Source: Eledone cirrhosa (taxonomy: Eukaryota). From it: DNA of 64,000 bases. The notes beneath the pieces are model-generated. The model did not search any database. It had not been told where the DNA came from and saw only the letters and a program-made list of their open reading frames with translations. The position numbers and the translations under genes are program-made. Below, one piece after another: positions 1,357-39,980 of this stretch. The stretch spans positions 1,736,001 through 1,800,000 of the forward strand of contig OZ024747.1 of assembly GCA_964016885.1 (NCBI GenBank), written 5' to 3'. How positions within the stretch are numbered: the first letter of the stretch is position 1; every line of letters starts with the position of its first letter.

Positions 1357-3880
1357 GTTATCAGGCATTTTTAGTATTATGTTTTTGTTTATTATGCTAA
1401 TCTATTCACATAGTTTTAATCAGTTATTATCATTACCATACTGCTCGCATTCTCAGACACCACTTCAACAATATCTTATAACTTTGATATTGTAAGTATT
1501 TGGCTGAGTCTCATAGAATGAGCTTTGTAAAATCCCTTGACATCATATAAAATACTGGCATTCTTAAGCTCCTTATGAACAGTCAGATTTTTTTCAATAT
1601 TTTCAGTAATTTTGTTATGATATTATTTATAAGCTGTTATATCTGGCACTGACAAGTTAATATTTTTCTGTTTTGTGTATAATTACATATATTCCTGGAC
1701 TGGGCGATAAATTATGTCCTGAGCAAGACACTTTATTTCAAGGTGCTCATTCTGCTTGGATTTGCTACCGATAGATAGTTTTAGCAATTAGAAAGACCAG
1801 TGGAAACATTGTTTCTTTGGTTCGATTTGACAAGCTCCACCCTACTTAAGCGAATAATGCCTAGGATCTTGTTGATCAACTGTTTTACATATATGTGACT
1901 GTTCTATTTTTCCTGTGATTCTGTTATTTCAATATTTTTCTAGTTTGAAGCTGTTTACAACTGTTTTATTTCAGGTTATATTTGTTTTATGACCAACTAT
2001 ATTTCTTTTATCCTCAGCATTTACTTCCATTATTGTTCCATGACTGGCTCATCAAAACCAGAGCTTTATCTGCATTGTTTTCATGATGTTTAAGGACCAG
2101 ATATGTTTCTTTATTAGCCACAGGGGCACAAAAGAAGGGGACAAATACAAAGGGGGGAAGTTTACATACAATAAGTTGGGCGTTTTGTCCTTTCACATAT
2201 ATTGAGTCAAGTGTTGCTCATGGTATTTTATATTTTTAATTATATCTAAAGGGTTTACATCTTTAATCCATACAGAAAAGTTGTAAAGGTTGCTGTTGCC
2301 TTATAGAAATGAGTACTCAGCCCCATAGTAGAGATTAACAGTTTATTAAGACTGATCCAGTAGCCTGTTACTCTCAACTTTTCACTGTGTGCTACATCTA
2401 CACATATATTGTAGTTCGAGACCAGGATATTTTTATGGCTCATTACTCTTGTCATATGGATTATATATATATAACTTATATACACCCACAAGTGGAGTAT
2501 AATTTTATTTATTTTTTATTGATTGAAATGAATGAAAGTCAAATATGTAAATGTGTTTACATTTTTTTAAAAACTGTTTTTGAGCGGAAATTCAAAGCAA
2601 AAGTAAATAAAATGTTTAAAGGGAACTGAGCCCACATATTTTTTTATCAGTTTTCATGTGACTTTCTATGTGATAAAAAAAAAGAAAGAAAATTTCACTC
2701 TCTTCATAAAGTTTAAAATTCAAATCGACGCAAACTCATAAGTATTTGTGCCAACATTTTGGAACATTTTGCATGTTATTGTTATTTTTATATTTACAAT
2801 TTTTTGCTTTTGTATGAAGATGAAAATAAAATCTAGCCATTATTGTTTGAACATTTAAGTATTTATAATCAAAATTATATAAGTTTTCAATATTTTACAA
2901 CCATTTAAATATTTATAATCCAAATTATATAGCACTTTACAATATTTTAATCAAATATATATTAAGTTTTATATTATTGTTATTTTTGATAAACTATTAA
3001 ATTGTAATATTAAAAAAGAAAATTACAATTTCAGAAAAGTTTTGTTTTATCAACTAAATGTTAACCACTGCATATTTGATGTTTTATATTTTAACATTTA
3101 CCACTTGTATGAAGAAAATACATATGCTCATACATGTATATATTTATGTATGAGTAACTAGGATTCATATATCCAGTTTTATTTTGGTTGGATGTACATT
3201 TAGGTTTGATATGTTTTACTTTGCATGTTCATAAACTATATTATATATACTTCGATCACAGAACATTCTTGTGATTCTGCATGACAAACTAAATATGGGT
3301 GTCTGTATATATGTACATATCTTTTTATAAATATGTATATTTGCGCGCATGCATGTGTATATGTATGTGCCTATGATTGTATACATGTATGTGTGGAATT
3401 ATATGCATACATTAATACATATATATCATTTTTGTATTTGTTTCACAATATTCTTGTAATTTGGAGAGTCATTCTGGCTGTAATATTACATCATGTAACC
3501 AGGAAAACTGTAAACACCTTCCAAACCAGCACCAACAGTAACAAGAAGATGCCTGCATTATATGTACTTTAGAAGGATCATAAATCCACCAATGATTCCA
3601 TTTTTGGAACTAACTTTACTTTTCTGAGGCAATATCAACTATAGGCTGTCATTTCATCTCAATGATCATAGGCTTATTAGTTGAGGTGTCTCCAGCTGTT
3701 TGCAAGCAATGAAACCTCCTCTGCAGAATGAATTAATGTAACCTTACAGACGATCAGAAGCATCAATGTCATATCTGTCAATATTGATTTAGTCATAGAG
3801 AAGTGCATGGAGATGATTTGTGTGAGTAATATTGTATTTCACAATGCTGATACCAATGAACTGCAAAATCTCATGACCTC

Positions 3881-4039
3881 TTACACAAATACAACTCTGA
3901 GTCCTCCCCAGTAGGGAGCTGTGTACTCTGTCGCTTCACACCACAGGCCTGATGAGTCTTCAAGCACGGGACAGACTTTAGACAGATATACATATAAAGA
4001 AAACCAGTTGCATGTTGCTACTGAGATGTCCAATGTTGT
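3881..4039 (-). CDS. Candidate terminal coding exon (TTLDISVATCNWFSLYVYLSKVCPVLEDSSGLWCEATEYTAPYWGGLRVVFV*)
   Basis: Minus-strand acceptor gtttatttccAG, then 52 phase-0 codons to TAA in locally GC-richer unique sequence. No homology recognised. Confidence 0.3.
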   Translation of the reverse strand, partial: TTLDISVATCNWFSLYVYLSKVCPVLEDSSGLWCEATEYTAPYWGGLRVVFV

Positions 4040-4261
4040 CTGGAAATAAACATTGACAAACCAAAGAAGAATTAATCAACAAAAAAGCAATGAACTATAA
4101 CCAGTGCCTGTGTTTTAATTGACAGAATGACTCTCCCAAAGTACATGTATCAACATGATATATATTCATCATAAATACCACAAACATCTGCATACAACAG
4201 ATAATTAAACAATCCATCACATATTTGATGTTATACAATTTAGTTTCAAATATATAGACAT

Positions 4262-4507
4262 TTCATATAAAAATGAGAAAACTCATCACTAGAACTGCCA
4301 AATGCTGTTCAAAGATAGCAATGGGTAAAAAAGGTCTGAGAGGACAGAGACCAGTGGTCAACAGAGAAACAATGCACGACACAGATGAAATATAGAAAAG
4401 ATTGAAAGAGGAGGAAAATGAGAACTGTGACTAGAAGAAATATCAGTCTTGGATATCATTTGGCAGTTCTAATGTTATAGTGAAGAGTTTTCTCATTTTT
4501 ATATGAA
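4262..4507. repeat. MITE-like inverted repeat element
   Basis: ttcatataaaaatgagaaaactc (4262-4284) is the exact reverse complement of 4485-4507, with further imperfect pairing (tagaactgccaaatg / catttggcagttcta). Confidence 0.65.
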
Positions 4508-4707
4508 TTAAATCTGACTTCATCTCAATCAGAGATAAGGTTTATTCATTTTAACTGTTATTTTATTATTGTTGTCATTTTGTTTTATGTTGATATATTC
4601 TTATACAAATGAATAAATATCTAATTTGAATATTTTGATACTGTCTTCAGTCTTATCTTTGAAATATGTATTTTTATGTATGTACATATATGATATATAT
4701 ATATATA

Positions 4708-4969
4708 GGTGGTGCTATTAAGTTAGACATGGCCTGGGCCAATACTGGCCGAAACCTATCAAAGTTATATATAACTTTCATAACTTTGATAGGTTTCGGC
4801 CATGTCTAAATTAATAGCACTACCTGGCAAAGTCTTTCAAATCAGGATTTGGGCACCATGGCCCATTCAAGTAGAGCTATTGTTTATGGAGGCATATCCA
4901 GGTGTGGGCGGTTTATCCGGGATTTCTTGAAGGAATTTGTCCAAAGAATTCTTGAACTTGATGGGGTTT
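4708..4969 (-). mobile_element. 3' end of a CR1-group LINE, truncated by the gap, with folded-back 3' terminus
   Basis: Minus ORF tail FKNSLDKFLQEIPDKP resembles the C-terminus of the LINE at 37361-39980 (FKKHLDTLLSRIPDEP). 4708-4825 is an inverted repeat. Confidence 0.65.
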
Positions 4970-5169
4970 NNNNNNNNNNNNNNNNNNNNNNNNNNNNNNN
5001 NNNNNNNNNNNNNNNNNNNNNNNNNNNNNNNNNNNNNNNNNNNNNNNNNNNNNNNNNNNNNNNNNNNNNNNNNNNNNNNNNNNNNNNNNNNNNNNNNNNN
5101 NNNNNNNNNNNNNNNNNNNNNNNNNNNNNNNNNNNNNNNNNNNNNNNNNNNNNNNNNNNNNNNNNNNNN
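4970..5169. other. Assembly gap (200 N)
   Basis: Run of N. Confidence 1.
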
Positions 5170-5326
5170 AGAAACAGGTGAAAGTGAAAATTGAGAGAGA
5201 CAAAGATGAAAACAAAACAAAGGTAGAAGGGTTACCGTAGTGGAGATAATCTCCACTACGGTAACCCTTCTACCTTTGTTTTGTTTTCATCTTTGTCTCT
5301 CTCAATTTTCACTTTCACCTGTTTCT
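5170..5326. repeat. Perfect 157-bp palindrome (78-bp arms, 1-nt centre at 5248)
   Basis: agaaacaggtgaaag...gtagtggagat A atctccactac...ctttcacctgtttct. Confidence 0.95.
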
Positions 5327-5407
5327 CCTATCTATCATTCACTTCCTACCTCGAGATTTCCCTCTGCATTGTTGTGGCTTTCTTAACTACGTATTTTATA
5401 TAAATAT

Positions 5408-5460
<53 letters not shown>

Positions 5461-5474
5461 AATATATATATATA

Positions 5475-5857
5475 TCATCATCATCATCATCATCATTTTA
5501 CGTCCGCTTTTCCCTGCTTGCAAGGGTGGGACGGGTCTTATTCAGCACAGCATCTCTCCACTCGTCACGGTCCCTCGTCATCTCCACCGTGAGCTTCAAT
5601 GATCTGAGGTCTGTTCTCACCACCTCCGCCCATGTTTTTCGTGGTCTACCTCTACCACGTCTTCCTTCAACTGGCATTTCCTGGCACTTCTTCACCCATC
5701 GGTCATCCTCCATGCGCATCACATGTCCATACCACCTCAGTCTCCTCTCCCGTACACTACATTCTATCCCTCTCAGACACAGTTTCTCTCTCAACACATT
5801 TATGCTGGGTCGTTCACGCACATTTACACTGCACATCCAACGGAGCATGCTTGCCTC
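5475..5857 (-). mobile_element. 5'-truncated RTE-clade LINE 3' end (family A) with (GAT)n tail, in (TA)n
   Basis: ORF 5498..5848 has [11 protein letters not shown]...[12 protein letters not shown]...DRDEWR, the typical RTE C-terminus. Nearly identical to 59365-59745. Confidence 0.92.
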
Positions 5858-6364
<507 letters not shown>

Positions 6365-6393
6365 GCCCCAGCATGGCCTCAGAAACAGGTAAA

Positions 6394-6453
6394 ATTTATT
6401 TATACTTCTCTTAGGTCAGTGTTGTTTCTGACCTAAGAGAAGTATAAATAAAT
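6394..6453. repeat. Hairpin, 26-bp perfect arms, 8-nt loop, just after a CR1-group LINE tail fragment (gccccagcatggcctcag)
   Basis: atttatttatacttctcttaggtcag / ctgacctaagagaagtataaataaat. The tail fragment matches 39928-39945. Confidence 0.85.
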
Positions 6454-6964
6454 AAGTAAATTAAATTAAATAAAATAAGATAAATAAATACATACACAAG
6501 CACATAAACACACACTAGTCACCCAGCAGACACAACACTATACACACTAGTCACACATCACACATAACACTATACACACACGCAAACGCATGCGCAAAGA
6601 AGACAAAATAAAATAAGATAAACAAACAAGCAAATAAATAAATAAATATATAGACAGACTGAACAAAAAAAATGGCGTAGACATACAACACAACAGGAGG
6701 AACAATGAATATAACACCACTGACGATGTTGCAGATGTGCAACGAAAGATTTATGTAAACTATATATATATGTGTTTGTCTATATTGTATCTGTATTATT
6801 TTTGACCGCCGGTCAGTCAATGGCAACATTGAGGACCGAGTAAGTTAGATCGCAGATATATATATATAAAAGACAGCGAGAAGCGAAAACCAACCAAACA
6901 GTGAGTGTGTTCTGTTATTAATTCCGGCAATATTACGCAAATATGACCCTCCCCAAATATAACA

Positions 6965-7406
<442 letters not shown>

Positions 7407-7590
7407 GTAAGTATGCATGTATACGTACATACATATATGTATACAGACGTACAGTAGCATGCACATATATATATATACATATATATATACATACAGGTAC
7501 ACATACATATATGCACGTATCAGTTAATATAGTTAATTTTCATAAGGAAAGTATATACTTTCGAACGTTCAACTATCTGGCAGATGGGTA

Positions 7591-7635
7591 AACGGTGCTG
7601 ATGATAGCTAACAAGCTTGAAACTAGTACATCGTT
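7591..7635 (+). ncRNA. Minimal type-I hammerhead ribozyme motif, copy 1
   Basis: aacggtg-CTGATGA-t-agct-aaca-agct-t-GAAA-CTAG-TA-catcgtt: 7-bp stem I, 4-bp stem II, palindromic ACTAGT in place of stem III. Confidence 0.7.
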
Positions 7636-8058
7636 CCTGTGTCAGTGTTGAACAAAAAGGTGACGTGGTTGCCTTAACACCGTATGGCATAAATTCAGGC
7701 TGTTCAGTTTGTTTACAAACGAACAAAGCGACGTTAGCGCCGCTAAACTGATACGTGCATATATGTATGTGTACCTGTATGCATATGTATATATATAGGT
7801 ATATATATATATATATATGTGCATGCTACTGTACGTCTGTATACATATATGTATGTACGTATACATGCATACTTACATTTAAGTAAGTGCCATACTAAGA
7901 GTGAGAAATGAAATTTCGTTTTCATTTTGTTTCAATTTATCGTTTTCGGTATGCCTGACCGATTTAACTCACTCAATATGCAAATTAGGCTGCTCAGCCG
8001 TTAATTTTCATAAGGAAAGTATATACTTTCGAACGTTCAACTATCTGGCAGATGGGTA

Positions 8059-8103
8059 AACGGTGCTGATGATAGCTAACAAGCTTGAAACTAGTACATC
8101 GTT
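8059..8103 (+). ncRNA. Minimal type-I hammerhead ribozyme motif, copy 2
   Basis: Identical to 7591-7635, 468 nt downstream. Confidence 0.7.
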
Positions 8104-8403
8104 CCTGTGTCAGTGTTGAACAAAAAGGTGACGTGGTTGCCTTAACACCGTATGGCATAAATTCAGGCTGTTCAGTTTGTTTACAAACGAACAAAGCGAC
8201 GTTAGCGCCGCTAAACTGATACGTGCATATATGTATGTGTACCTGTATGCATATGTATATATATATGTATATATATATATATATGTGCATGCTACTGTAC
8301 GTCTGTATACATATATGTATGTACGTATACATGCATACTTACATTTAAGTAAGTGCCATACTAAGAGTGAGAAATGAAATTTCGTTTTCATTTTGTTTCA
8401 ATT

Positions 8404-8505
<102 letters not shown>

Positions 8506-8628
8506 TATATATATTTATATATATATATATAAAATATATATATATATATATAAAATATATATATTTATATAATATATATATATAATATATATATATAAAA
8601 TATATATATATTTATATATATATATATA

Positions 8629-8660
<32 letters not shown>

Positions 8661-10709
8661 ACATATCTACCACCAGGTCACTCTCTGTCTGGTTGGAGCT
8701 CTGCTCCAGTCACAAGTTCATCAGTAGCCTGCAGTAAGTTGTCACGTAAGAAATTCCAGTTATTATCTATGTCATACATCTCTAAATCGTCTTCTTTTTC
8801 TCATTTTCTTCTCTTTTTTTCCTCATTCCTTATTCCTATGTATATCGTAGAGTTTCTTACTTCTTCTATACATCCATCTATATATCCATTACCAGTGCCA
8901 TGATGAAGTTCCTCACCCTGTCCAACATTTCTGTCTGAATTTCCCCAGCCTCCAACCCGGTGTCATCTTCAAGAACATCCTTCAGTATTGTGGTTGGTCC
9001 CTCAACTTGTCAGCATGATGTCCAATTTGGCTGGAATGTAGAGTGTTGTCGATTCTTGGTCTGATCTGATGCATCTTCTTGTCGTATCAGCATTATCAAC
9101 GAACAAGGTGGACTGGATATTTTTGGCCATGGTACCAGCACTGTGGGAGTGCAAGTGATATGTCATGGGGTTGACTTTTAAGAGGGTTGTCCTTGGCAGT
9201 ATATTATATAATATGTCCAGATTTCCATGCATTCATGGTTTGGACAGGAAACCAAGTGATAGGGGGAATGAGGACAATGGAGAAAAACATCAGTCTCATC
9301 CTCACTAAACATCTATTGTCCATGTCCACTTGGGCCTGATAGGCTGTCATGTTCAGAGATCAGGCTGGACAGGTGACCATTTGGTATTGGCATGGCTTCT
9401 ACACTTAGAAACTTTTTCTAATCCCATCAGGGGATTTTATTAAATGAGTATATATCATCCTCATCGTCATTTAACATCCATTTTCTACAGCAATGACCAT
9501 AATAAAATAAAAATGTTATCTACATTGGCCAGTGAAGTCAGAAATGTTTACTTATGTAAGTTATCCTGGTGTAAAGGATTTGTCTGGAATGTTTGAAAGA
9601 ATTTGTTAACATATCAATTCTGAGCTTTTATTATTTTCATAACACCTTTGGGAATAATCTTGAACAAAGCTTGGCTGATCTTGATGGGATATATAATATG
9701 TGCTGTTAGTAGGTTTTTGTGAAAAAGCTGGTGAATTGAGGTCAATATTGAAAGTTTTGAGTCAATTTTGAAATTTACACTGACTTGTTATAAGTACTGA
9801 TAGTAAAGTTACCAGTTTTTGGAAATGGCGAGCCACTTAGGATGACTTCAGGAGAAATATAGATTGAATAACTCAAGGTGACTAACACAGACTCTGTATG
9901 TTATTTATTTTCTAGTTATGTAATCTTTGTAATGCTTCAGTTGTTATAATATGTTGTTTGGTATTGGGAGACCACTAGAAACAGTTATACTGTGAATGGT
10001 ACCTCACAATTGTTAATAATAGACAATTAGATGTCTGAAGATGTCACAGAAAAATGTGTGATGAAAGAACTTTGAGAAATTATATTTATATTTTCAACTG
10101 TTGGTCAATCAATTATAAACATTGATTGCCAGCTAAATTATTTATAAAAATATAAATATATACTGAAGCAAAAACAAAACCAAACATTGAGTGTGTTTTA
10201 CTATTTTTGGCAATATTAGGACAACATGACCCTCCCCAAATATAACAAACCATTTAACATTACTTTTTTAATGTTGTAAGGCATAATGTCACCATCTCTT
10301 ATTTCTTGCAATATGTTGGCTACAAATAAAGCAGTGAGATTTTCATCTGGTTTGGCTTACAAGATCTCATTTACTGTTATTATATAGTCTCTCTCTCCCA
10401 CACATAATGAACTTTACAGCATCTCTTTATAATTATTAGAAACCAGTAGTAATACTATATATAGAAATACCTACGTTTCAATGTGACTATTTCAATCTCT
10501 CTCTCTGTATGTGTGTGTGTGTGTGTGTATATATATACAGGAATAAGACCATCATTGCTACAACCAGTCTACTCATCATCAATAACTACCCTAAATATAC
10601 ATGCACATACAGTACACACACATATACTATATACAAATATATACATATATATATATACAAATATATACATATACATATATAGACAAAGGATTTGCTTTGA
10701 AGTCGCTAG

Positions 10710-23532: not shown

Positions 23533-23925
23533 ATATACTACAGTAACATAGACATATATATACTACAGTAACATAGACATATATATACTACAGTAACATA
23601 GTCATATATATACTACAGTAACATAGACATATATATACTACAGTAGCATAGACATATATATACTACAGTAGCATAGACATATATATACTATAGTAACATA
23701 GACATATATATACTACAGTAACATAGACATATATACTACAGTAACATAGACATATATACTACAGTAGCATAGACATATATATACTACAGTAACATAGACA
23801 TATATATACTATAGTAACATAGACATATATATACTACAGTAACATAGACATATATACTACAGTAACATAGACATATATATACTATAGTAGCATAGACATA
23901 TATATACTACAGTAACATAGACATA
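23533..23925. repeat. Minisatellite ctacagtaacatagaca(ta)n, left part
   Basis: 23-29-bp unit. The array resumes at 27991. Confidence 0.95.
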
Positions 23926-25040
23926 CTAGCTAGAAAAATGCGTACAGCAAAAAAAAGTAATATTGTTGGAACAAACCTTTAAAAATACAGGACAAGGAAG
24001 TAAGATAAACCTTTAAAAATACAGGACAAAGAACTAAGATAAAACTTTAAAAGAATAGGACAAGGAATATAAATTTTTACAATAATATTAGTGGCAAAAT
24101 TCAATTGGTAAAAAATTGAGTTTCCATCATTACACCAATTACAACTATGATGTTCCGCATGCATCCACTCCAACCATGATCACTTGTCTGTCATCTTTCC
24201 CGGTCCAACTCCTCGCGGATGACCCGGCGCAACTCGGACTGGGTCGGAGCAGGAACTGGAGGGGGAGAGGGAGGGGTACGGGTCTTGACTCTGGGACGAT
24301 GACGGCGAGTGACCAAGGTGAATGGGCCCGTGTTCGACTCGGAATCCTGCTGGTCCTCGATGACACTTTGAGGCACGGTTGACGGTTCCGGACTGGCTTC
24401 ATGGGCAGTGGTAGAAGGGCAGGTGGATAGGGCAGAGTGCTTCTTCCTGGGAGAGCACTTGAAGCAGGTGAAGCCGGCGCCGGACTCGTTGAACCACTTC
24501 CAGACAGCACTGGGCATGTTGGCGCAGCAATGATGAAAGTTGAAGCAGGCGACGAGGGGGGAGGAGGTGGAGGCGTTGGTGCAGGAGCAACAGACTGCTG
24601 ATTTGGGAGTCATTGTAGCTGGGGGATGCAGGCGCTGAGGGGGCTCGAGTAGAAGGGAAGAACAGAAATGAACCATGATGACTTTTCCTACATTTTTCCT
24701 GGCCCACTTCCTCATGAACCAATGAACCAGTTGGTACAACTCGGACTTGGAGGAGGAACACAAGACAGGGATCAATTTCATTGTATTGATATTTCTCATT
24801 AAGTAATTTCATGTTACTCAAATAAATCACTTTTATTTGATCAATTATCTATTTTTCCAATAAAATTTTTGCCACTAATATTATTGTAAAAATTTATATT
24901 CCTTGTCCTATTCTTTTAAAGTTTTATCTTAGTTCTTTGTCCTGTATTTTTAAAGGTTTATCTTACTTCCTTGTCCTGTATTTTTAAAGGTTTGTTCCAA
25001 CAATATTACTTTTTTTTGCTGTACGCATTTTTCTAGCTAG
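23926..25040. repeat. Perfect 174-bp inverted repeat (23926-24099 / 24867-25040) enclosing a GC-rich insert
   Basis: Base-by-base comparison found no mismatch. Both arms end in CTAGCTAG followed by T. Confidence 0.95.
24145..24613 (-). pseudogene. Captured LINE ORF1-like fragment with degenerate PHD finger
   Basis: CCSC...LVAC..FHHCC...W..F.....FTCFKC, a low-complexity linker, then ELRRVIREELDRER* and, after a frameshift, RQVIMVGVD. This resembles the PHD plus 'REE.ERE.R..N(L/V)II.G' layout of CR1/L2-group ORF1. GC content is far above the flanks. Confidence 0.55.
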
Positions 25041-25507
25041 TTTCCTATTTTTCAAGGCAATGCAAACAACAACTACTTAATTAAATAGTTATTACTTTAG
25101 TTACTTCTATCAAAAAATCCCAAAAATGATGTTAATGAAAACTATAGGTGAAAGTGAAGCTATTCTTTTGTGACCTCTTAGTTACTTGTACCAATTTTGA
25201 ATTTAATTCAAGCTACAGTGTCAGCCTGTGCATTGGAGTCACAGAAATAAGTTGAGATATTTTATCTAATTGGTACAAGCATCCACTCCACATGGCGGGG
25301 ACATAGGTCAGATCGTGGAGCACTCACCTATCTTAAAAATATTAACTTATGATAAATAAGAGTCATTTAAGAAAATACAATTTTTTTAAATTAGTAGGTG
25401 AGCATTAACAACTGAATCTAAATGGAGCAAATTTGCACCATTTGCATTTAGTTGAAAATAACATTTTAATTAAACATGACAAATTCTAATGCAATAGAAG
25501 GCAAATA

Positions 25508-25775
25508 TCAATTTTCACATGCAAATTTTTTGGGGATTTTTTTCACGCGCGCCATTTTTGGTCGATTTTTTGTCAATTTTCCACATGCAAATTTTTTTGG
25601 GTTTTTTTGATTTTTTTTCACGCGCGCCATTTTTTTCGATTTTTTGTCAATTTTTCACATGATAATTTTTTTTTGGATTTTTGGATTTTCTTCACGCACG
25701 CCATTTTTGTCGATTTTTTGTCAATTTTTCACATGATAATTTTTTTTGGATTTTTGTATTTTCTTCACGCGCTTT
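25508..25775. repeat. About 4 degenerate ~70-80-bp tandem units inside the Helitron-like element
   Basis: tcaattttcacatg...ttttcacgcgcgccattttt..tcgattttttg repeated. Confidence 0.8.
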
Positions 25776-26354
25776 TTGGTATGCATTATTCATATGTTTT
25801 GCTTGTTCTGATTGTCTTTTTTCTTTTATTTCAGCAGCTTTTCGTTTTTTATACTCCCTATTCCTAATGGCATTTTTTCTCCGTTTTTCATTCTCTTTAT
25901 GAATTTTTTGATCTTTGGGACATTCGGAAGCACTATCAGTCTCATTGAATTCAAATTCAGGTCCAGGATTTAATTCAACACAACCGATAATAAGCAATGA
26001 TAAGATCAGTGCACGTGTTCTATATTTCTGATTGGAAATCGGGTAAATTCGTTTATTGGATTTGTAAAAAGCCGCCTGAATGTGAATTTCATCATTCGAA
26101 TTGCCCGATTGTGGAATTGTTTCATTCGAAATGGAAATATTGCATTTTCGCGCCAGGCAAAAAAGTAATAAGCCGATCAAAAAGCCGCGAAACGTATATG
26201 GTGACTTTTTTCGAAAGCCGCGAAACGTATGAAGTGACCTTTTGCGATTTTTTTTGCGACCATTTTGGCGAGACTTTTGCAGGGAAACAAATTTTTCATT
26301 TGTAATAGTCAAAATAAATAAGCCGATAAAAAAGCCGAGAGACGTCATTTTCAT
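25692..26354 (-). CDS. 220-codon ORF with a 2A/StopGo-like motif (RALILSLLIIGCVELNPG|P) followed by a K/R/E-rich helical segment; possibly a remnant N-terminus of the element's protein
   Basis: The motif GCVELNPGP is at 25959-25985. The ORF is in the same orientation as the TC...CTAG termini. Both ORF ends run through tandem repeats, so the true start and stop are uncertain. Confidence 0.5.
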   Translation of the reverse strand: MKMTSLGFFIGLFILTITNEKFVSLQKSRQNGRKKNRKRSLHTFRGFRKKSPYTFRGFLIGLLLFCLARKCNISISNETIPQSGNSNDEIHIQAAFYKSNKRIYPISNQKYRTRALILSLLIIGCVELNPGPEFEFNETDSASECPKDQKIHKENEKRRKNAIRNREYKKRKAAEIKEKRQSEQAKHMNNAYQKAREENTKIQKKLSCEKLTKNRQKWRA

Positions 26355-26680
26355 ATGTCAAATGAGCACACTATTCGCACCTATCGCAAATGAGTTCACT
26401 ACTCGCACCTATCGGTACAAAAAATAGCACAACTATTCACAACTATTAGTACAAATCCAAATGATTTTCTGAATTTCTAGTATATCAATCAGCGACTGCT
26501 TTGAAAGAGAACAATGCAGTGAGTGATTACTCATTTGAATATAAATAGAAGACAACCTCAACTAGTTTGCAACGTGTGACCACTTATCGCGAGATAGGAG
26601 AACATAATAGCTCCTAATTAGCTCAATGATTAATGTTTACTGCCACATTGTATCAACATTTAAAATTCAAATTCAAAAAA

Positions 26681-26950
26681 ATAACCGCAGTCACTGGGGG
26701 GAGGGTTCGAATAAGCGCCGCACCCCGAATAATCGCAGTCACTGGGGGGAGGGTTCGAATAAGCGCCGCACCCCGAATAACCGCAGTCACTGGGGGGAGG
26801 GTTCGAATAAGCGCCGCACCCCGAATAATCGCAGTCACTGGGGGGAGGGTTCGAATAAGCGGGGGGGGGGGGGGGTCGAATAAGCGTCTCACCCCGAATA
26901 ATCGCAGTCACTGGGGGAGGGTTCGAATAAGCGCCGCACCCCGAATAACC
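26681..26950. repeat. GC-rich 48-bp tandem repeat, ~5.5 copies
   Basis: ataaccgcagtcactggggggagggttcgaataagcgccgcaccccga. Confidence 0.95.
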
Positions 26951-26986
26951 CCTTATCCTCCTCTGACCGGTCCCAAGAGATGCATC

Positions 26987-27417
26987 AAATGCACAGAGCG
27001 TCACCCTTACTCACTCACTTACTCACTTGAACACAGTTTTTTTCAGCAAACTTTGATCATAACTTTTTTTGTGCTGAACGAAATTTCGAGATTTTTAGCT
27101 TATAAGAGATGTGCAATGATTTACTCTCCATGCTCATATAACTTTCATGTGATTTTGATAATCGGAAGACATTCTAATAATGCTGTAAAGAGACGATTGC
27201 CAACGAAATCACTAAGACAACAATATTACTAAACCGACTACCGTCGGTTTAGGATATACAAATGAAAAAATTAATATGTTGCGTACATATCTAAAATCTA
27301 ATTTGCAAACAAAATGTTCACTTGCATACTATATTGGATATATACCAGATGTAATCTCCGATTTATACAATTTAAGTATTTAAATCATATTTGCGTACAT
27401 GCGTAATGAGTACGAAA

Positions 27418-27464
<47 letters not shown>

Positions 27465-27990
27465 CGTTCATACAAACATACAAGTATAATCATATTTATG
27501 AAGGTTATATGCATTTATACATAGACATTATACATACTTATTTAATAATACCAACACCAGAACCAAACATTTCTTAATAAAACAACAATAATCATTTATT
27601 TCTTGATATTTACACGAAGAAGAAGAAGAAGAAGAAGAAGAAAATGATGATGAGGGAGGGGGGGGGAGAAAGAGGAACAAAACAAGTGGAGGAGGAGGGG
27701 GATTATTGGAGTCGGAAGAAGAGAAAATGCACAGAGCGTCACCCTTACTCACTCACTTACTCACTTGAACACAGTTTTTTTCAGCAAACTTTGATCATAA
27801 CTTTTTTTGTGCTGAACGAAATTTCGAGATTTTTAGCTTAAGAGATGTGCAATGATTTACTCTCCATGCTCATATAACTTTCATGTGATTTTGATAATCG
27901 GAAGACATTCTAATAATGCTGTAAAGAGACGATTGCCAACGAAATCACTAAGACAACAATATTACTAAACCGACTACCGTCGGTTTAGGA
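26987..27990 (-). repeat. Direct duplication of the element's ~267-bp 5' end (26987-27254 and 27725-27990)
   Basis: Identical except a 2-bp indel. Each copy carries the hairpin ctaaaccgac-tacc-gtcggtttag and an A|TC junction on the minus strand. Confidence 0.93.
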
Positions 27991-30100
27991 TATATATACT
28001 ACAGTAACATAGACATATATACTACAGTAACATAGACATATATATATACTACAGTAACATAGACATATATATACTACAGTAACATAGACATATATACTAC
28101 AGTAACATAGACATATATATATACTACAGTAACATAGACATATATATACTACAGTAACATAGACATATATATACTACAGTAACATAGACATATATACTAC
28201 AGTAACATAGACATATATACTACAGTAGCATAGACATATATATACTACAGTAACATAGACATATATATATACTACAGTAACATAGACATATATACTACAG
28301 TAACATAGACATATATACTACAGTAACATAGACATATATATACTACAGTAGCATAGACATATATATACTACAGTAACATAGTCATATATATACTACAGTA
28401 ACATAGACATATATACTACAGTAACATAGACATATATATACTACAGTAACATAGACATATATATACTACAGTAACATAGTCATATATATACTACAGTAGC
28501 ATAGACATATATATACTACAGTAACATAGACATATATATATACTACAGTAACATAGTCATATATATACTACAGTAACATAGACATATATATACTACAGTA
28601 ACATAGACATATATACTACAGTAGCATAGACATATATATACTACAGTAACATAGACATATATACTACAGTAACATAGACATATATATATACTACAGTAAC
28701 ATAGACATATATACTACAGTAACATAGATATATATATACTACAGTAACATAGACACATATATACTACAGTAACATAGACATATATACTACAGTAACATAG
28801 TCATATATATACTACAGTAACATAGTCATATATACTACAGTAACATAGACATATATACTACAGTAACATAGACATATATATACTACAGTAACATAGACAT
28901 ATATATACTACAGTAACATAGACATATATACTACAGTAACATAGACATATATATACTACAGTAACATAGACATATATACTACAGTAACATAGACATATAT
29001 ATACTACAGTAACATAGACATATATACTACAGTAACATAGACATATATATACTATAGTAACATAGACATATATATATATACTACAGTAACATAGACATAT
29101 ATATACTACAGTAACATAGACATATATATACTACAGTAACATAGACATATATACTACAGTAACATAGACATATATACTACAGTAACATAGTTATATATAT
29201 ACTACAGTAACATAGACCTATATATACTACAGTAACATAGACATATATATACTACAGTAACATAGACATATATATACTACAGTAACATAGACATATATAT
29301 ACTACAGTAACATAGACATATATATATATACTACAGTAACATAGACATATATACTACAGTAACATAGACATATATATACTACAGTAACATAGACATATAT
29401 ATATATACTACAGTAACATAGACATATATACTACAGTAACATAGACATATATATACTACAGTAACATAGACATATATATATATACTACAGTAACATAGAC
29501 ATATATACTACAGTAACATAGACATATATATACTACAGTAACATAGACATATATATACTACAGTAACATAGTCATATATACTACAGTAACATAGACATAT
29601 ATATACTACAGTAACATAGACATATATATACTACAGTAACATAGACATATATATACTACAGTAACATAGTCATATATACTACAGTAACATAGACATATAT
29701 ACTACAGTAACATAGTCATATATATACTACAGTAACATAGACATATATATATATACTACAGTAACATAGACATATATACTACAGTAACATAGACATATAT
29801 ATACTACAGTAACATAGACATATATATATATACTACAGTAACATAGACATATATACTACAGTAACATAGACATATATACTACAGTAACATAGTCATATAT
29901 ATACTACAGTAACATAGACATATATACTACAGTAACATAGACATATATACTACAGTAACATAGACATATATACTACAGTAGCATAGACATATATATACTA
30001 TAGTAACATAGACATATATATACTACAGTAACATAGACATATATACTACAGTAACATAGACATATATATACTACAGTAACATAGACATATATATACTACA
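27991..30100. repeat. Minisatellite ctacagtaacatagaca(ta)n, right part
   Basis: Direct reading. Confidence 0.97.
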
Positions 30101-37360: not shown

Positions 37361-39980
37361 AGGTCCTTGACAAACTGGACCAGGGTCTCAACATTCTACT
37401 GCTGGGAGACTTCAACCTACCAAAGGTCAAATGGCCTGAGGGCCACCTCCTCCCTGGAATGACGTCAATAGAACAGAGACAGACGGAATCCCTGCTGGCC
37501 CTCACACACAGGCTGTTCATGGAGCAAGCAATACTCCTCCCAACAAGAGGCGAAAATTTCCTGGACATCTGTTTTACAAACAACGAAGTGCTCATCCACA
37601 ATGTAAAGGTGACACCAACAATTCTCTCGGATCATAACTTAGTAGAGCTAATGATATGTGGTCTGAGAGAACCAACAGAGACAAAACCACCAAGAAGCTC
37701 CGGGATGTTATCCAGCCTTAACTTCTACAAGGCTAACTGGAAAAAGATTAAGAGAGAAATCCAGAAGCAAACATGGAGTGAAAACACCGCCACACAAGAC
37801 ACTAACACACAATTTCAACACTTCATGACAACGATACACACTATATGCAAAAAGTTTGTCCCGGAGAAAAAGGCAAACAGACACAAAAATCTTATTCCCA
37901 GAGATAGGAAAATCCTTATGAGACGTAGAACCAAGCTCTCAAACCAGTTGAATAGTCAACAAGAAAACAAAAACAAGAAGGAATCCTATTTGAAATGTGC
38001 ACTACTTGGCACCGAGATTGCACTCAAACTTTCCCATGAAAATGAGAAGGCAAAGAAAAAGAACAGGGCCATAGAAAACATTAAAACAAACCCTAAGGCC
38101 TTCTTTAAATTTGCAAAAGAAACTGCCTCGGTACACTGCAAGATTGGACCACTCTTCCATACGGATGGTTCATTAACCGAAAACCCCCAAGAGATATGTG
38201 AAATACTGAACGAACAGTACAAAAGTATGTTCACATGTCCACTGAGGCACATGCAAATAACGAAGCCAGAGGAGTTCTTTGATGCCACAACACTACATGA
38301 AGAAATGGCGACCATCAACCACATAGACATAATGGAGGAGGATGTGGTGTACGCCATAGATGAAATTAGAACAGACTCAGCTGCTGGACCTGATGGATTC
38401 CCAGCAGTTCTCTTAAAAACATGTAAGCGGGCCTTAGCAACTCCACTGAAGATGCTCTTCAGAAGCTCCTTGGCTAGCGGTGTACTACCCAGGGAGCTGA
38501 AAGAAGGCACAATATGCCCTATCCATAAAGGAGGTAGCAGAGCGGAGACCAAAAACTATAGGCCAGTCTCCCTGACGTTGCATATCAGTAAGGTCATGGA
38601 GCGAGTCATCAGAAAGAAACTGATCACTTTCCACAAGGAAAATGACCGCCTGACTAGCACGCAACATGGCTTCCGCCCAGGAAGAAGCTGCCTTACACAG
38701 CTGCTACATCACTACTAGACAGCTCACATGTGGACGTGATATATCTTGACTTTGCAAAGGCCTTTGACAAGGTCGACCACGGAATGATATGTCACAAACT
38801 ACACGGACTCGGCATAACTGGAAAAGTAGGTGAGTGGCTGCATGACTTCCTAAAGGACAGAAGCCAGACAGTCGCAGCAAATGGGGCCCTCTCAAAGGAA
38901 ACACCAATAACAAGTGGGGTGCCCCAGGGGACAATCCTGGGACCACTACTGTTTTTGGTGGCTCTCTCAGACATGCCCTCTGTAGTACATACAACAACAT
39001 CCCTCACTAGCTATGCTGATGACACTAAGGTAGCACAGGCAATCAAAAACCCGGCTGACGCTGCCCTTTTACAACAAGATCTGGGCGGAAGAAAACAACA
39101 TGCAGTTTAATGCTGGCAAATTCCAAGCCCTACAATACAAACCTCCAAACAAACCTGCAAACACAAATATAATACAACACAACTACACAGGACCAGGAGG
39201 GACCGATATCCCCGTGTCAAAATCGATACGAGACCTGGGCATAGACATGAGCGATGATGCATCGTTTTCCTCACACATCATGAAAGTGGTGACAATGTGC
39301 AGACGACTCGCTGGCTGGATCTTGAGGACTTTCCGGACAAGGGACCGAGACACCATGTTGACACTATGGAGGACATTTGTCCTAAGCCGCCTGGACTACT
39401 GCTCCCAGTTGTGGTCACCCCATAGTGTCAAACTAACCACGGAGCTTGAGGCAATCCAGCGAAACTACACCAAGAGGATTGCCAAGATGAGGGAGACAAG
39501 CTACTGGGAGAGGCTAAAGGAACTGAACCTCTACTCCTTGGAATGAAGACGGGAGAGATACGCAGTGATCTACATGTGGAAAATCCTGGAGGGACTAGCA
39601 CCAAACTTTGGAATTGGGAGCTGGACCAACCGTCGAACAGGACGTCATTGTGTGGTGCCAAAGGTCCCGTCTTCCACATCTAGAATAAGGAGCAGGTATT
39701 GCAATAGCCTGGGATCCAGGGCCCTCAACTCTTCAACAAACTGAGAGATTTGCATGACGTGGAGGTGGATGTCTTCAAGAAACATCTCGATACCTTGCTA
39801 TCCAGGATCCCGGATGAGCCCACAGCAAAGCACGAGGGAAACCTAAGGGCAGCAGCAACAAACTCCCTCTTACACCAGTGGCCAACCTATACAGGCTGGA
39901 GATAAAATGTGTAGCAACAAGGGCGGTGCCCCAGCATGGCCTCAGCCGGATGGCTGAAAGAGGTAAAAGAGTAAAAGAGT
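37361..39980 (+). mobile_element. 5'-truncated CR1-group LINE ORF2 (APE C-terminus plus RT), inactivated
   Basis: LLGDFNLP, PTRGENFLD, SDHNLV, AAGPDG, NYRPVSLT, QHGFRPGRSCLTQLL, YLDFAKAFDKVDH, SGVPQGTILGPLLF, YADD, RDLG, LDYCSQLWSP. Small deletions near 38720 and 39085 and a TGA at 39544. Tail is aaaagagtaaaagag. Confidence 0.95.

Follow-up and report, generated by a model that had tools for sequence, protein, structure and literature searches.

The window analysed here, a 64,000-nucleotide stretch of the 3.0-Gb Eledone cirrhosa genome (G000:C7:1736001-1800000), contains a 4065-bp block that interrupts a host minisatellite and reads, on the minus strand, from A|TCC at position 27990 to CTAG|T at position 23926. 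An initial annotation had delimited this block, and on re-reading the sequence its coordinates and termini proved correct, as did its list of interior modules: a duplicated 5' end, a 48-bp array, repeats of about 75 bp, an ORF bearing NPGP and an inverted copy of the 3' end. The locus comprises:

23926..27990, minus strand: whole non-autonomous element of family A, with A|TC...CTAG|T ends
23533-23925 and 27991-30100, unstranded: 25-bp host minisatellite, split by the element
27725..27990, minus strand: extra outer 5' module, the first 266 bp of the element, 100% identical to positions 1-266 of the parent element
27965..27988, minus strand: 5' hairpin with a 10-bp stem and a 4-nt loop, 2 nt from the end, -10.2 kcal/mol in families A and B
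27954..27966, minus strand: 5' copy of a 13-bp subterminal inverted repeat (element positions 25-37)
27255..27724, minus strand: 470 bp of captured host DNA, donor locus identified
23926..27254, minus strand: core element from the inner TC, collinear with the parent save for one deletion
26680..26933, unstranded: 48-bp GC-rich array, also found in the 5' region of the parent, variable in copy number
25769..26357, minus strand: 5' stub of the RepHel ORF, a 100% match within a 1904-aa frame
25769..25772, minus strand: deletion junction with 4-bp microhomology, joining parent position 1789 to 9358
25535..25772, unstranded: 74-bp repeats derived from the 3' non-coding region of the parent
24852..25040, plus strand: inner arm, an inverted copy of the 3' terminus ending in CTAG|T on the plus strand
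24115..24851, minus strand: 737-bp loop, 52% GC, which contains most of a degenerate PHD-like ORF (24191-24808) and for which no origin was found
23956-23968, minus strand: 3' copy of the 13-bp repeat, within the outer arm
23926..24114, minus strand: outer arm, which is the 3' terminus; the 190-bp repeat pair spans 23925-24114 and 24852-25041

Rejoining 20 nt from either flank restores an intact unit of the array, a sequence with five occurrences. The restored unit is of the (AT)5 type, which accounts for 5 of the 86 intact units and is rarer than the (AT)4 (44), (AT)3 (31) and (AT)6 (6) types, and the window site taken alone is therefore compatible with a 2-bp TA duplication. The absence of a target duplication, initially claimed from this site, is instead secured by other copies of the element. 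Genome searches with each element end returned 100%-identical matches (the best 40 of 636 and the best 40 of 938 candidates being scored), and a search with the ORF of the loop, for which all 68 candidates were scored, gave 47 matches, with 45 full ones and one split copy, so that at least 46 copies carry this ORF. We tallied 44 family-A loci; for the 3' ends, the double count of L069 was dropped, together with L141, a fold-back with no true 3' end. The outer 5' ends read A|TC in 46 of 46 cases, and T follows each of the 43 distinct 3' ends, which read CTAG in 41 cases and CTAC and CTAT in one each. Because 30 of the loci were picked through end queries, there is some selection on the terminal letters; the A and T of the flanks lay outside the queries, and each makes up about 33% of the local DNA, against A|T at all tallied ends. 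The left and right flanks have zero overlap in 13 of 43 copies, which excludes a target site duplication (TSD), and empty paralogous units are present in the tandem arrays around L085 (93 units), L142 (20) and L074 (4). The copies accordingly share boundaries in the way that had been anticipated, with co-occurring ends and no fixed TSD. The lack of a TSD is characteristic of the Helitron superfamily, and the 5' TC, 3' CTRR and A|T target are those of Helitron1; the T|T target and 3' hairpin of HLE2 elements are absent, all copies having A|T.

A RepHel-encoding partner with identical ends, of the kind the initial annotation had proposed, is present in this genome as an 11,204-bp parent (G000:C13:18885149-18896352), alongside a second full-length copy of 11,169 bp that is 99.4% identical to it; these are the two RepHel-encoding copies. 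The partner thus supplies the HUH Rep and Pif1 helicase that define the superfamily. The window element is 99.6% identical to the parent over its last 1847 bp and 100% identical over the 5' module, and is without about 7.6 kb of parental sequence. Its deletion junction is common to 28 of 41 loci tested; a second junction has a motif match in 7 of the 41, and a third occurs in L075. That the block is a real Helitron, descended from the RepHel element, we hold to be practically beyond doubt, and its earlier description as a recently moved, non-autonomous rolling-circle element stands on the A|TC...CTAG|T ends, the lack of a fixed TSD and the RepHel parent.

The same annotation had explained the interior as the product of serial capture, with unrelated host and LINE pieces assembled into a non-autonomous mosaic. 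One true capture does exist, the 470-bp piece with its donor, and the loops of related families, which differ from one another, may be older captures. However, the array, the 2A-like ORF, the 74-bp repeats and the cassette at the 3' end are collinear with the parent at 97.7-99.6%, and hence were inherited in order, as was everything in the interior but the extra 5' module and the 470-bp piece. Moreover, the 2A-like ORF continues as the RepHel. Serial capture is refuted for the window copy, and we consider it very improbable as a general account. The 2A-like ORF does bear NPGP, as first noted, but it is really the first part of the RepHel gene, a 100% match inside the 1904-aa frame of the parent locus that has been cut by the 7.6-kb deletion. 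Its motif, CVELNPGP at 25959-25982, has C where canonical 2A has D, which sets it apart from the D(V/I)ExNPGP consensus of ribosome-skipping 2A peptides, taken from a literature listing; a literature search for Helitrons with 2A found nothing relevant.

The parental RepHel carries DUF6570, Helitron_like_N, PIF1 and a C-terminal UCH domain. According to the accessible parts of PMC11417382, DUF6570 is a marker of HLE2 and UCH is almost confined to it, so that the protein has the HLE2 pairing of domains; with UCH at its C-terminus, it is distinct from strict Helentrons, in which an AP endonuclease is fused to RepHel. Rep motif 2 reads YFWRLEYQQRGAPHIH, versus VIEFQKRGLPHAH in the Helitron1 (HLE1) proteins of the same genome, and departs from the G-L-P-H of HLE1. 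It contains FWR, given as a Helentron signature in the portion of PMC4067079 available, but has A at the position between G and P where the HLE2 signature is S. A Rep-region search of the genome recovered two sister families, B (about 90% identical in amino acids) and C (62% in the Rep region, 48% overall), the latter with open frames of 2230-2245 aa in 5 of 5 merged copies. In a quick tree of 46 rows (four rows shorter than 220 aa or without the motif were dropped, and named HLE2 references lie outside it), families A, B and C group at 99, with the Helitron1 proteins of this genome set apart by a branch of 4.2 substitutions. In both assembled family-A parents the helicase is interrupted by an in-frame TAA, ahead of the last helicase motifs, of which motif VI is reported as essential in Helraiser (accessible text of PMC4778049), and the assembly yielded no intact transposase of family A. 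Contig(s) of another sample under the same species label have a sense codon at this position, on which ground we rejected the idea of a stop codon fixed in the species, and in contigs from a second organism three bases are missing there without a shift of frame. Together these differences make it likely that an open family-A transposase exists outside this assembly.

The ends of the element follow a mixed pattern. The 5' hairpin is kept in family B through a compensatory pair change, and subterminal inverted repeats of 13 bp in family A and 10 bp in family C complete the combination of short repeats and 5' hairpin known from HLE2. The last 60 nt fold weakly in all three families (-2.3 to -2.7 kcal/mol, with -2.3 in A), no strong short hairpin being formed, and the 16-20-nt palindrome that Helitron1 elements carry about 11 nt before the 3' end is lacking. 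The Helitron signature proposed at the outset therefore holds for the TC and CTAG ends and the A|T target, but the element is not a canonical Helitron1, given its HLE2 markers and a good short hairpin at the 5' end only. We suggest that it combines a predicted HLE2-type transposase (DUF6570, UCH), assigned on domains and with named HLE2 reference rows outside the tree, with Helitron1-like ends. As far as the accessible parts of PMC4067079 and PMC11417382 go, this combination has been described only for the oomycete proto-Helentron and, in part, for the fungal HLE2-reverse elements.

The comparisons that follow rest on the portions of the cited papers open to us. Proto-Helentron-Pi of Phytophthora (PMC4067079; PMC11417382, section 24) resembles the family-A element in its HLE2-type RepHel without endonuclease, its 3' CTAG, its A|T target without TSD, its 5' stem-loop and its inverted repeats of about 12 bp. 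In contrast, it starts with TT rather than TC, its 5' stem-loop lies about 3.6 kb from the left repeat, and those texts describe no long 3' repeat. It has been reported only in Phytophthora and is stated not to have been found in 404 other genomes (PMC11417382). The Fusarium elements FoHeli3-5, or HLE2-reverse (PMC5148889; PMC11417382), share a 5' hairpin without a 3' hairpin, an inverted repeat of 13-16 bp, a size of 9-11 kb, DUF6570 and, among FoHelis, multiple 5' termini; they differ in their ends (TGCCT...CTCCTGT, not TC...CTRR), in duplicated 5' pieces that are typically shorter than 200 bp, and in that the passages concerned mention no long 3' inverted repeat. The family-A end layout hence matches HLE2-reverse, and its CTAG and A|T match proto-Helentron. 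Helraiser, a Helitron1 (PMC4778049; PDB 7LCC), has the same TC...CTAG ends, A|T target and HUH plus Pif1 transposase, but it needs as terminator a 19-bp 3' hairpin 11 nt from the end (PMC4778049), which family A does not have, and the two transposases are similar at only 58 bits. Helentrons and DINE-1 (PMC4067079) likewise have 13-bp subterminal repeats, a hairpin beside one of them and deletion derivatives, whereas their target is T|T, they encode an endonuclease domain and their hairpin is at the 3' end. DINE-1 also carries an extra inverted repeat near its hairpin-less end, but this is a short one at a distance of 3-22 bp, whereas the repeat of the window element measures 190 bp and lies 737 bp away.

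At the 5' side, 2-9 5' ends are present in many copies, and the window element has two, separated by the 470-bp spacer. The donor of this spacer is G000:C1:69199651-69200144, a locus with no element within 10 kb and with both edges at A|T, identical to the captured DNA outside microsatellites. Capture patterns of the window type give 21 matches, of which 20 lie in elements or their 5' pieces and the remaining one is this element-free donor. The 470 bp of host DNA likely lay upstream of a copy and were captured together with the second 5' end; the donor site is empty in this assembly, and the capture intermediate was not seen there. A literature search for 5' flank capture by Helitrons found nothing relevant. 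It is also possible, if unlikely in our view, that the extra 5' end arose by nested self-insertion into another Helitron copy, as modelled in PMC5148889 (Fig. 7) and PMC3288121 (accessible parts of both), rather than by truncated strand transfer. In L071 and L076 the 5' extension breaks at A|T steps, as nested insertion predicts. Yet the window spacer was taken from host DNA at a locus devoid of elements and not from an element, and the tandem 5' stubs (18, 25 and 26 nt) break off at steps other than A|T, as expected of an early stop followed by rejoining. Truncated transfer would produce such stubs where copying stopped early and the strand was rejoined in place; alternatively, a truncated 5' piece would remain upstream of a copy, at an A|T site, and the intervening DNA would later be carried off. 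We posit that the window element acquired its 470 bp of host DNA and second 5' end in this latter way, at an earlier insertion site. L061 is a solo 5' piece of 172 bp, and L069 has a solo 5' piece 3.6 kb upstream of a full copy. Capture of host DNA on the 5' side, with an identified donor, would constitute a route distinct from 3' end bypass.

The 3' side is dominated by the long inverted repeat. The terminal motif CGCATTTTTC-N-CTRG|T is common to families A, B and C, and in each the 3' end is repeated in inverted orientation, with arms of 190 bp in A, 174-218 bp in B and 220 bp in C around loops of 737, 666 and 532 bp, respectively, which bear no meaningful similarity to one another (the best match of loop A to loops B and C is 52 bp at 75%, E 0.002, with no credible protein match). 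The body/inner-arm junction is alike in all three families. Within an element the arms are 98-99.5% identical in A and C and 95-99% in B; between A and B they have clearly diverged, and those of C, compared by eye, share the terminal motif alone. This pattern suggests an old repeat whose arms are kept alike. An inverted repeat of 175-220 bp around unrelated loops of 0.5-0.75 kb is thus a property of three sister families of this genome, and a literature search, covering the accessible parts of papers with Repbase and Dfam outside its scope, found no description of so long a 3' repeat in Helitrons. Among 80 metagenome relatives the ends could not be fixed, the overlapping contigs resembling the same loci, and a hairpin-plus-repeat scan of 20 gave no matching pair, although its controls recovered the true 3' end for family A only, among the three.

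The loop had been labelled a LINE-ORF1-like cassette. An ORF-bearing cassette does lie inside the inverted 3' end; the label is a weak lead, as Pfam gave nothing at cut-off for five window ORFs including this one, no longer homologue was found (which is weak evidence), and the genome yielded no donor LINE (68 of 68 candidates scored). Its neighbours in a protein atlas are PHD-finger proteins, at scores of at most 0.83. With its 190-bp terminal inverted repeats, the 1115-bp cassette could be taken for an independent TIR transposon, a MITE nested at the end of the element. We find this scarcely credible: in every fetched family-A locus with the cassette it occupies the element end, joined inward in the same way and without a duplication, the 45 full loop-ORF matches fit element copies (all but 4 fetched), and the homologous junction of family C holds another cassette.

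Copy-specific changes have moved between the arms of single elements. A patch of the outer arm is present in the inner arm of L064, the reverse is seen in L089, and L087 has a private substitution at mirror positions of both arms, so that conversion is visible in 3 of 42 family-A arm pairs. In family B, L139 carries a private change shared by both arms, and a fourth 34-bp unit is present in both arms of L210 and B_C28 and in the outer arm only of L138 and L139. The loop is flipped in L074, one among the 41 loop-bearing A loci, and in L206, one among 20 C copies; L141 is a head-to-head fold-back dimer, and in L142 a MITE is joined at mirror positions. Since the palindrome of L142 is a pre-existing MITE-like repeat, we rejected its origin by fold-back and count the mirror placement alone. 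That mirror positions share copy-specific changes makes it likely that the arms can pair into a long hairpin. Most private substitutions are confined to one arm (8 of 10 unshared in A, 11 of 11 in C), and rebuilding of the outer arm hence does not accompany each jump. The outer arm has more mutations (15 versus 6), an excess that was left unused as too small and that includes three terminal-base changes. Separately, polishing errors around inverted repeats might imitate the patches of L064 and L089, and chromosomal conversion or flips between close inverted repeats are an alternative origin for the transfers observed.

How the long repeat should be read depends on whether it acts in transposition. 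It may be a passive relic of an old inverted self-insertion that chromosomal conversion keeps uniform, termination then proceeding through pairing of the 13-bp repeats and the element and its parentage being unchanged. Several points are in keeping with this: subterminal repeats of the necessary kind exist in families A and C, pairing of 5' and 3' ATIRs has been proposed as the Helitron2 end signal (PMC3627910, in part), inverted self-insertion is modelled in Fig. 8 of PMC5148889 (likewise), and copies without the inner arm and yet with correct ends occur (C3a and L196 in family C, L149 in family B). However, each of these arm-less copies was seen once, whereas the deletion types found in more than one copy all retain the long repeat, and the repeat persists across three families despite RepHel identities as low as 48% and the replacement of arms and loops. 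We regard a passive relic as a real possibility, if one somewhat short of an even chance.

In our preferred reading, internal deletion of an 11.2-kb Helitron encoding an HLE2-type transposase gave rise to the block, which the parental RepHel likely mobilised in trans; taken as a whole, with 5' capture and a fold-back terminator included, we consider this reading probable. In this pathway RepHel would nick at the outer TC and peel off a strand, with rolling-circle copying into an A|T site. The displaced strand would fold its last 1.1 kb into a stem of about 175-190 bp, the base of which is the CTAG|T cut site, and copying would be stopped by this long stem instead of by a short 3' hairpin, while mismatches in the paired arms would be repaired. 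To our minds, a role for the stem in transposition is about an even call, and its likely contribution, judged from sequence, would be to help termination. More tentatively still, we propose that, in an animal lineage of HLE2 elements bearing Helitron1-type ends, a 0.2-kb fold-back of the 3' end maintains itself and acts as terminator, with arms repaired on the peeled strand and the loop as an exchangeable cargo slot; if true, the fold-back would be one more type of Helitron end, next to the hairpin of HLE1 and the short repeats of HLE2.

The mechanistic model of how copying stops comes from Helraiser, a Helitron1 and not an HLE2 element (PMC4778049, accessible text). With near-identical young copies, a transposase that is likely intact in the species and natural end mutants, HLE2 termination would be directly testable here. 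The pairing of an HLE2 protein with HLE1 ends is extended by these families from Phytophthora to an animal, and such elements would be mis-called under detection rules that demand a T|T target or a 3' hairpin. We note lastly that L078 is a tandem duplication of the core and 1.8 kb of 3' flank, which starts exactly at TC.

Family C, a sister of the window element's family A, constitutes a second young Helitron family (L172-L181, L192-L206), with copies of approximately 12.8 kb that are 98-99% identical to one another, an open RepHel-UCH frame of 2230 aa, a 5' hairpin with a 19-bp stem and a 3' inverted repeat of 220 bp. This family is likely still active. Two of its copies, C3a (L176/L177) and L196, have lost the inner arm and loop of the inverted repeat, and in both the sequence resumes at an identical point within the outer arm.

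In family A, the independent 5' pieces at L063, L066, L072, L076 and in the window all end at element positions 260-266, and a small internal hairpin adjoins this end point. It is possible that positions 260-266 constitute a cryptic stop site.

The closest RepHel homologue, P0001, is labeled as deriving from a gammaproteobacterial MAG, but we infer that it likely represents animal DNA inside that bin. The family-A RepHel itself occurs at approximately 98% identity in run X4, under a different organism label, and may reflect either a close relative or horizontal transfer.

Elsewhere in the genome, near-identical Helitron1 Rep domains recur every 100-300 kb at L091-L110 (G000 C19, C20, C27 and C16), on a single strand within each region; this spacing and shared orientation suggest that they lie in large tandem segmental repeats. 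A palindromic, TA-flanked MITE-like family is also abundant, with 1333 candidates (L142:5995-6166, in a family-A copy; L243-L259). The window further contains LINE fragments:

37363-38715, plus strand: LINE endonuclease and reverse-transcriptase fragments in a 451-aa frame

Sequence resembling this frame adjoins L149, a family-B copy without the inner arm.
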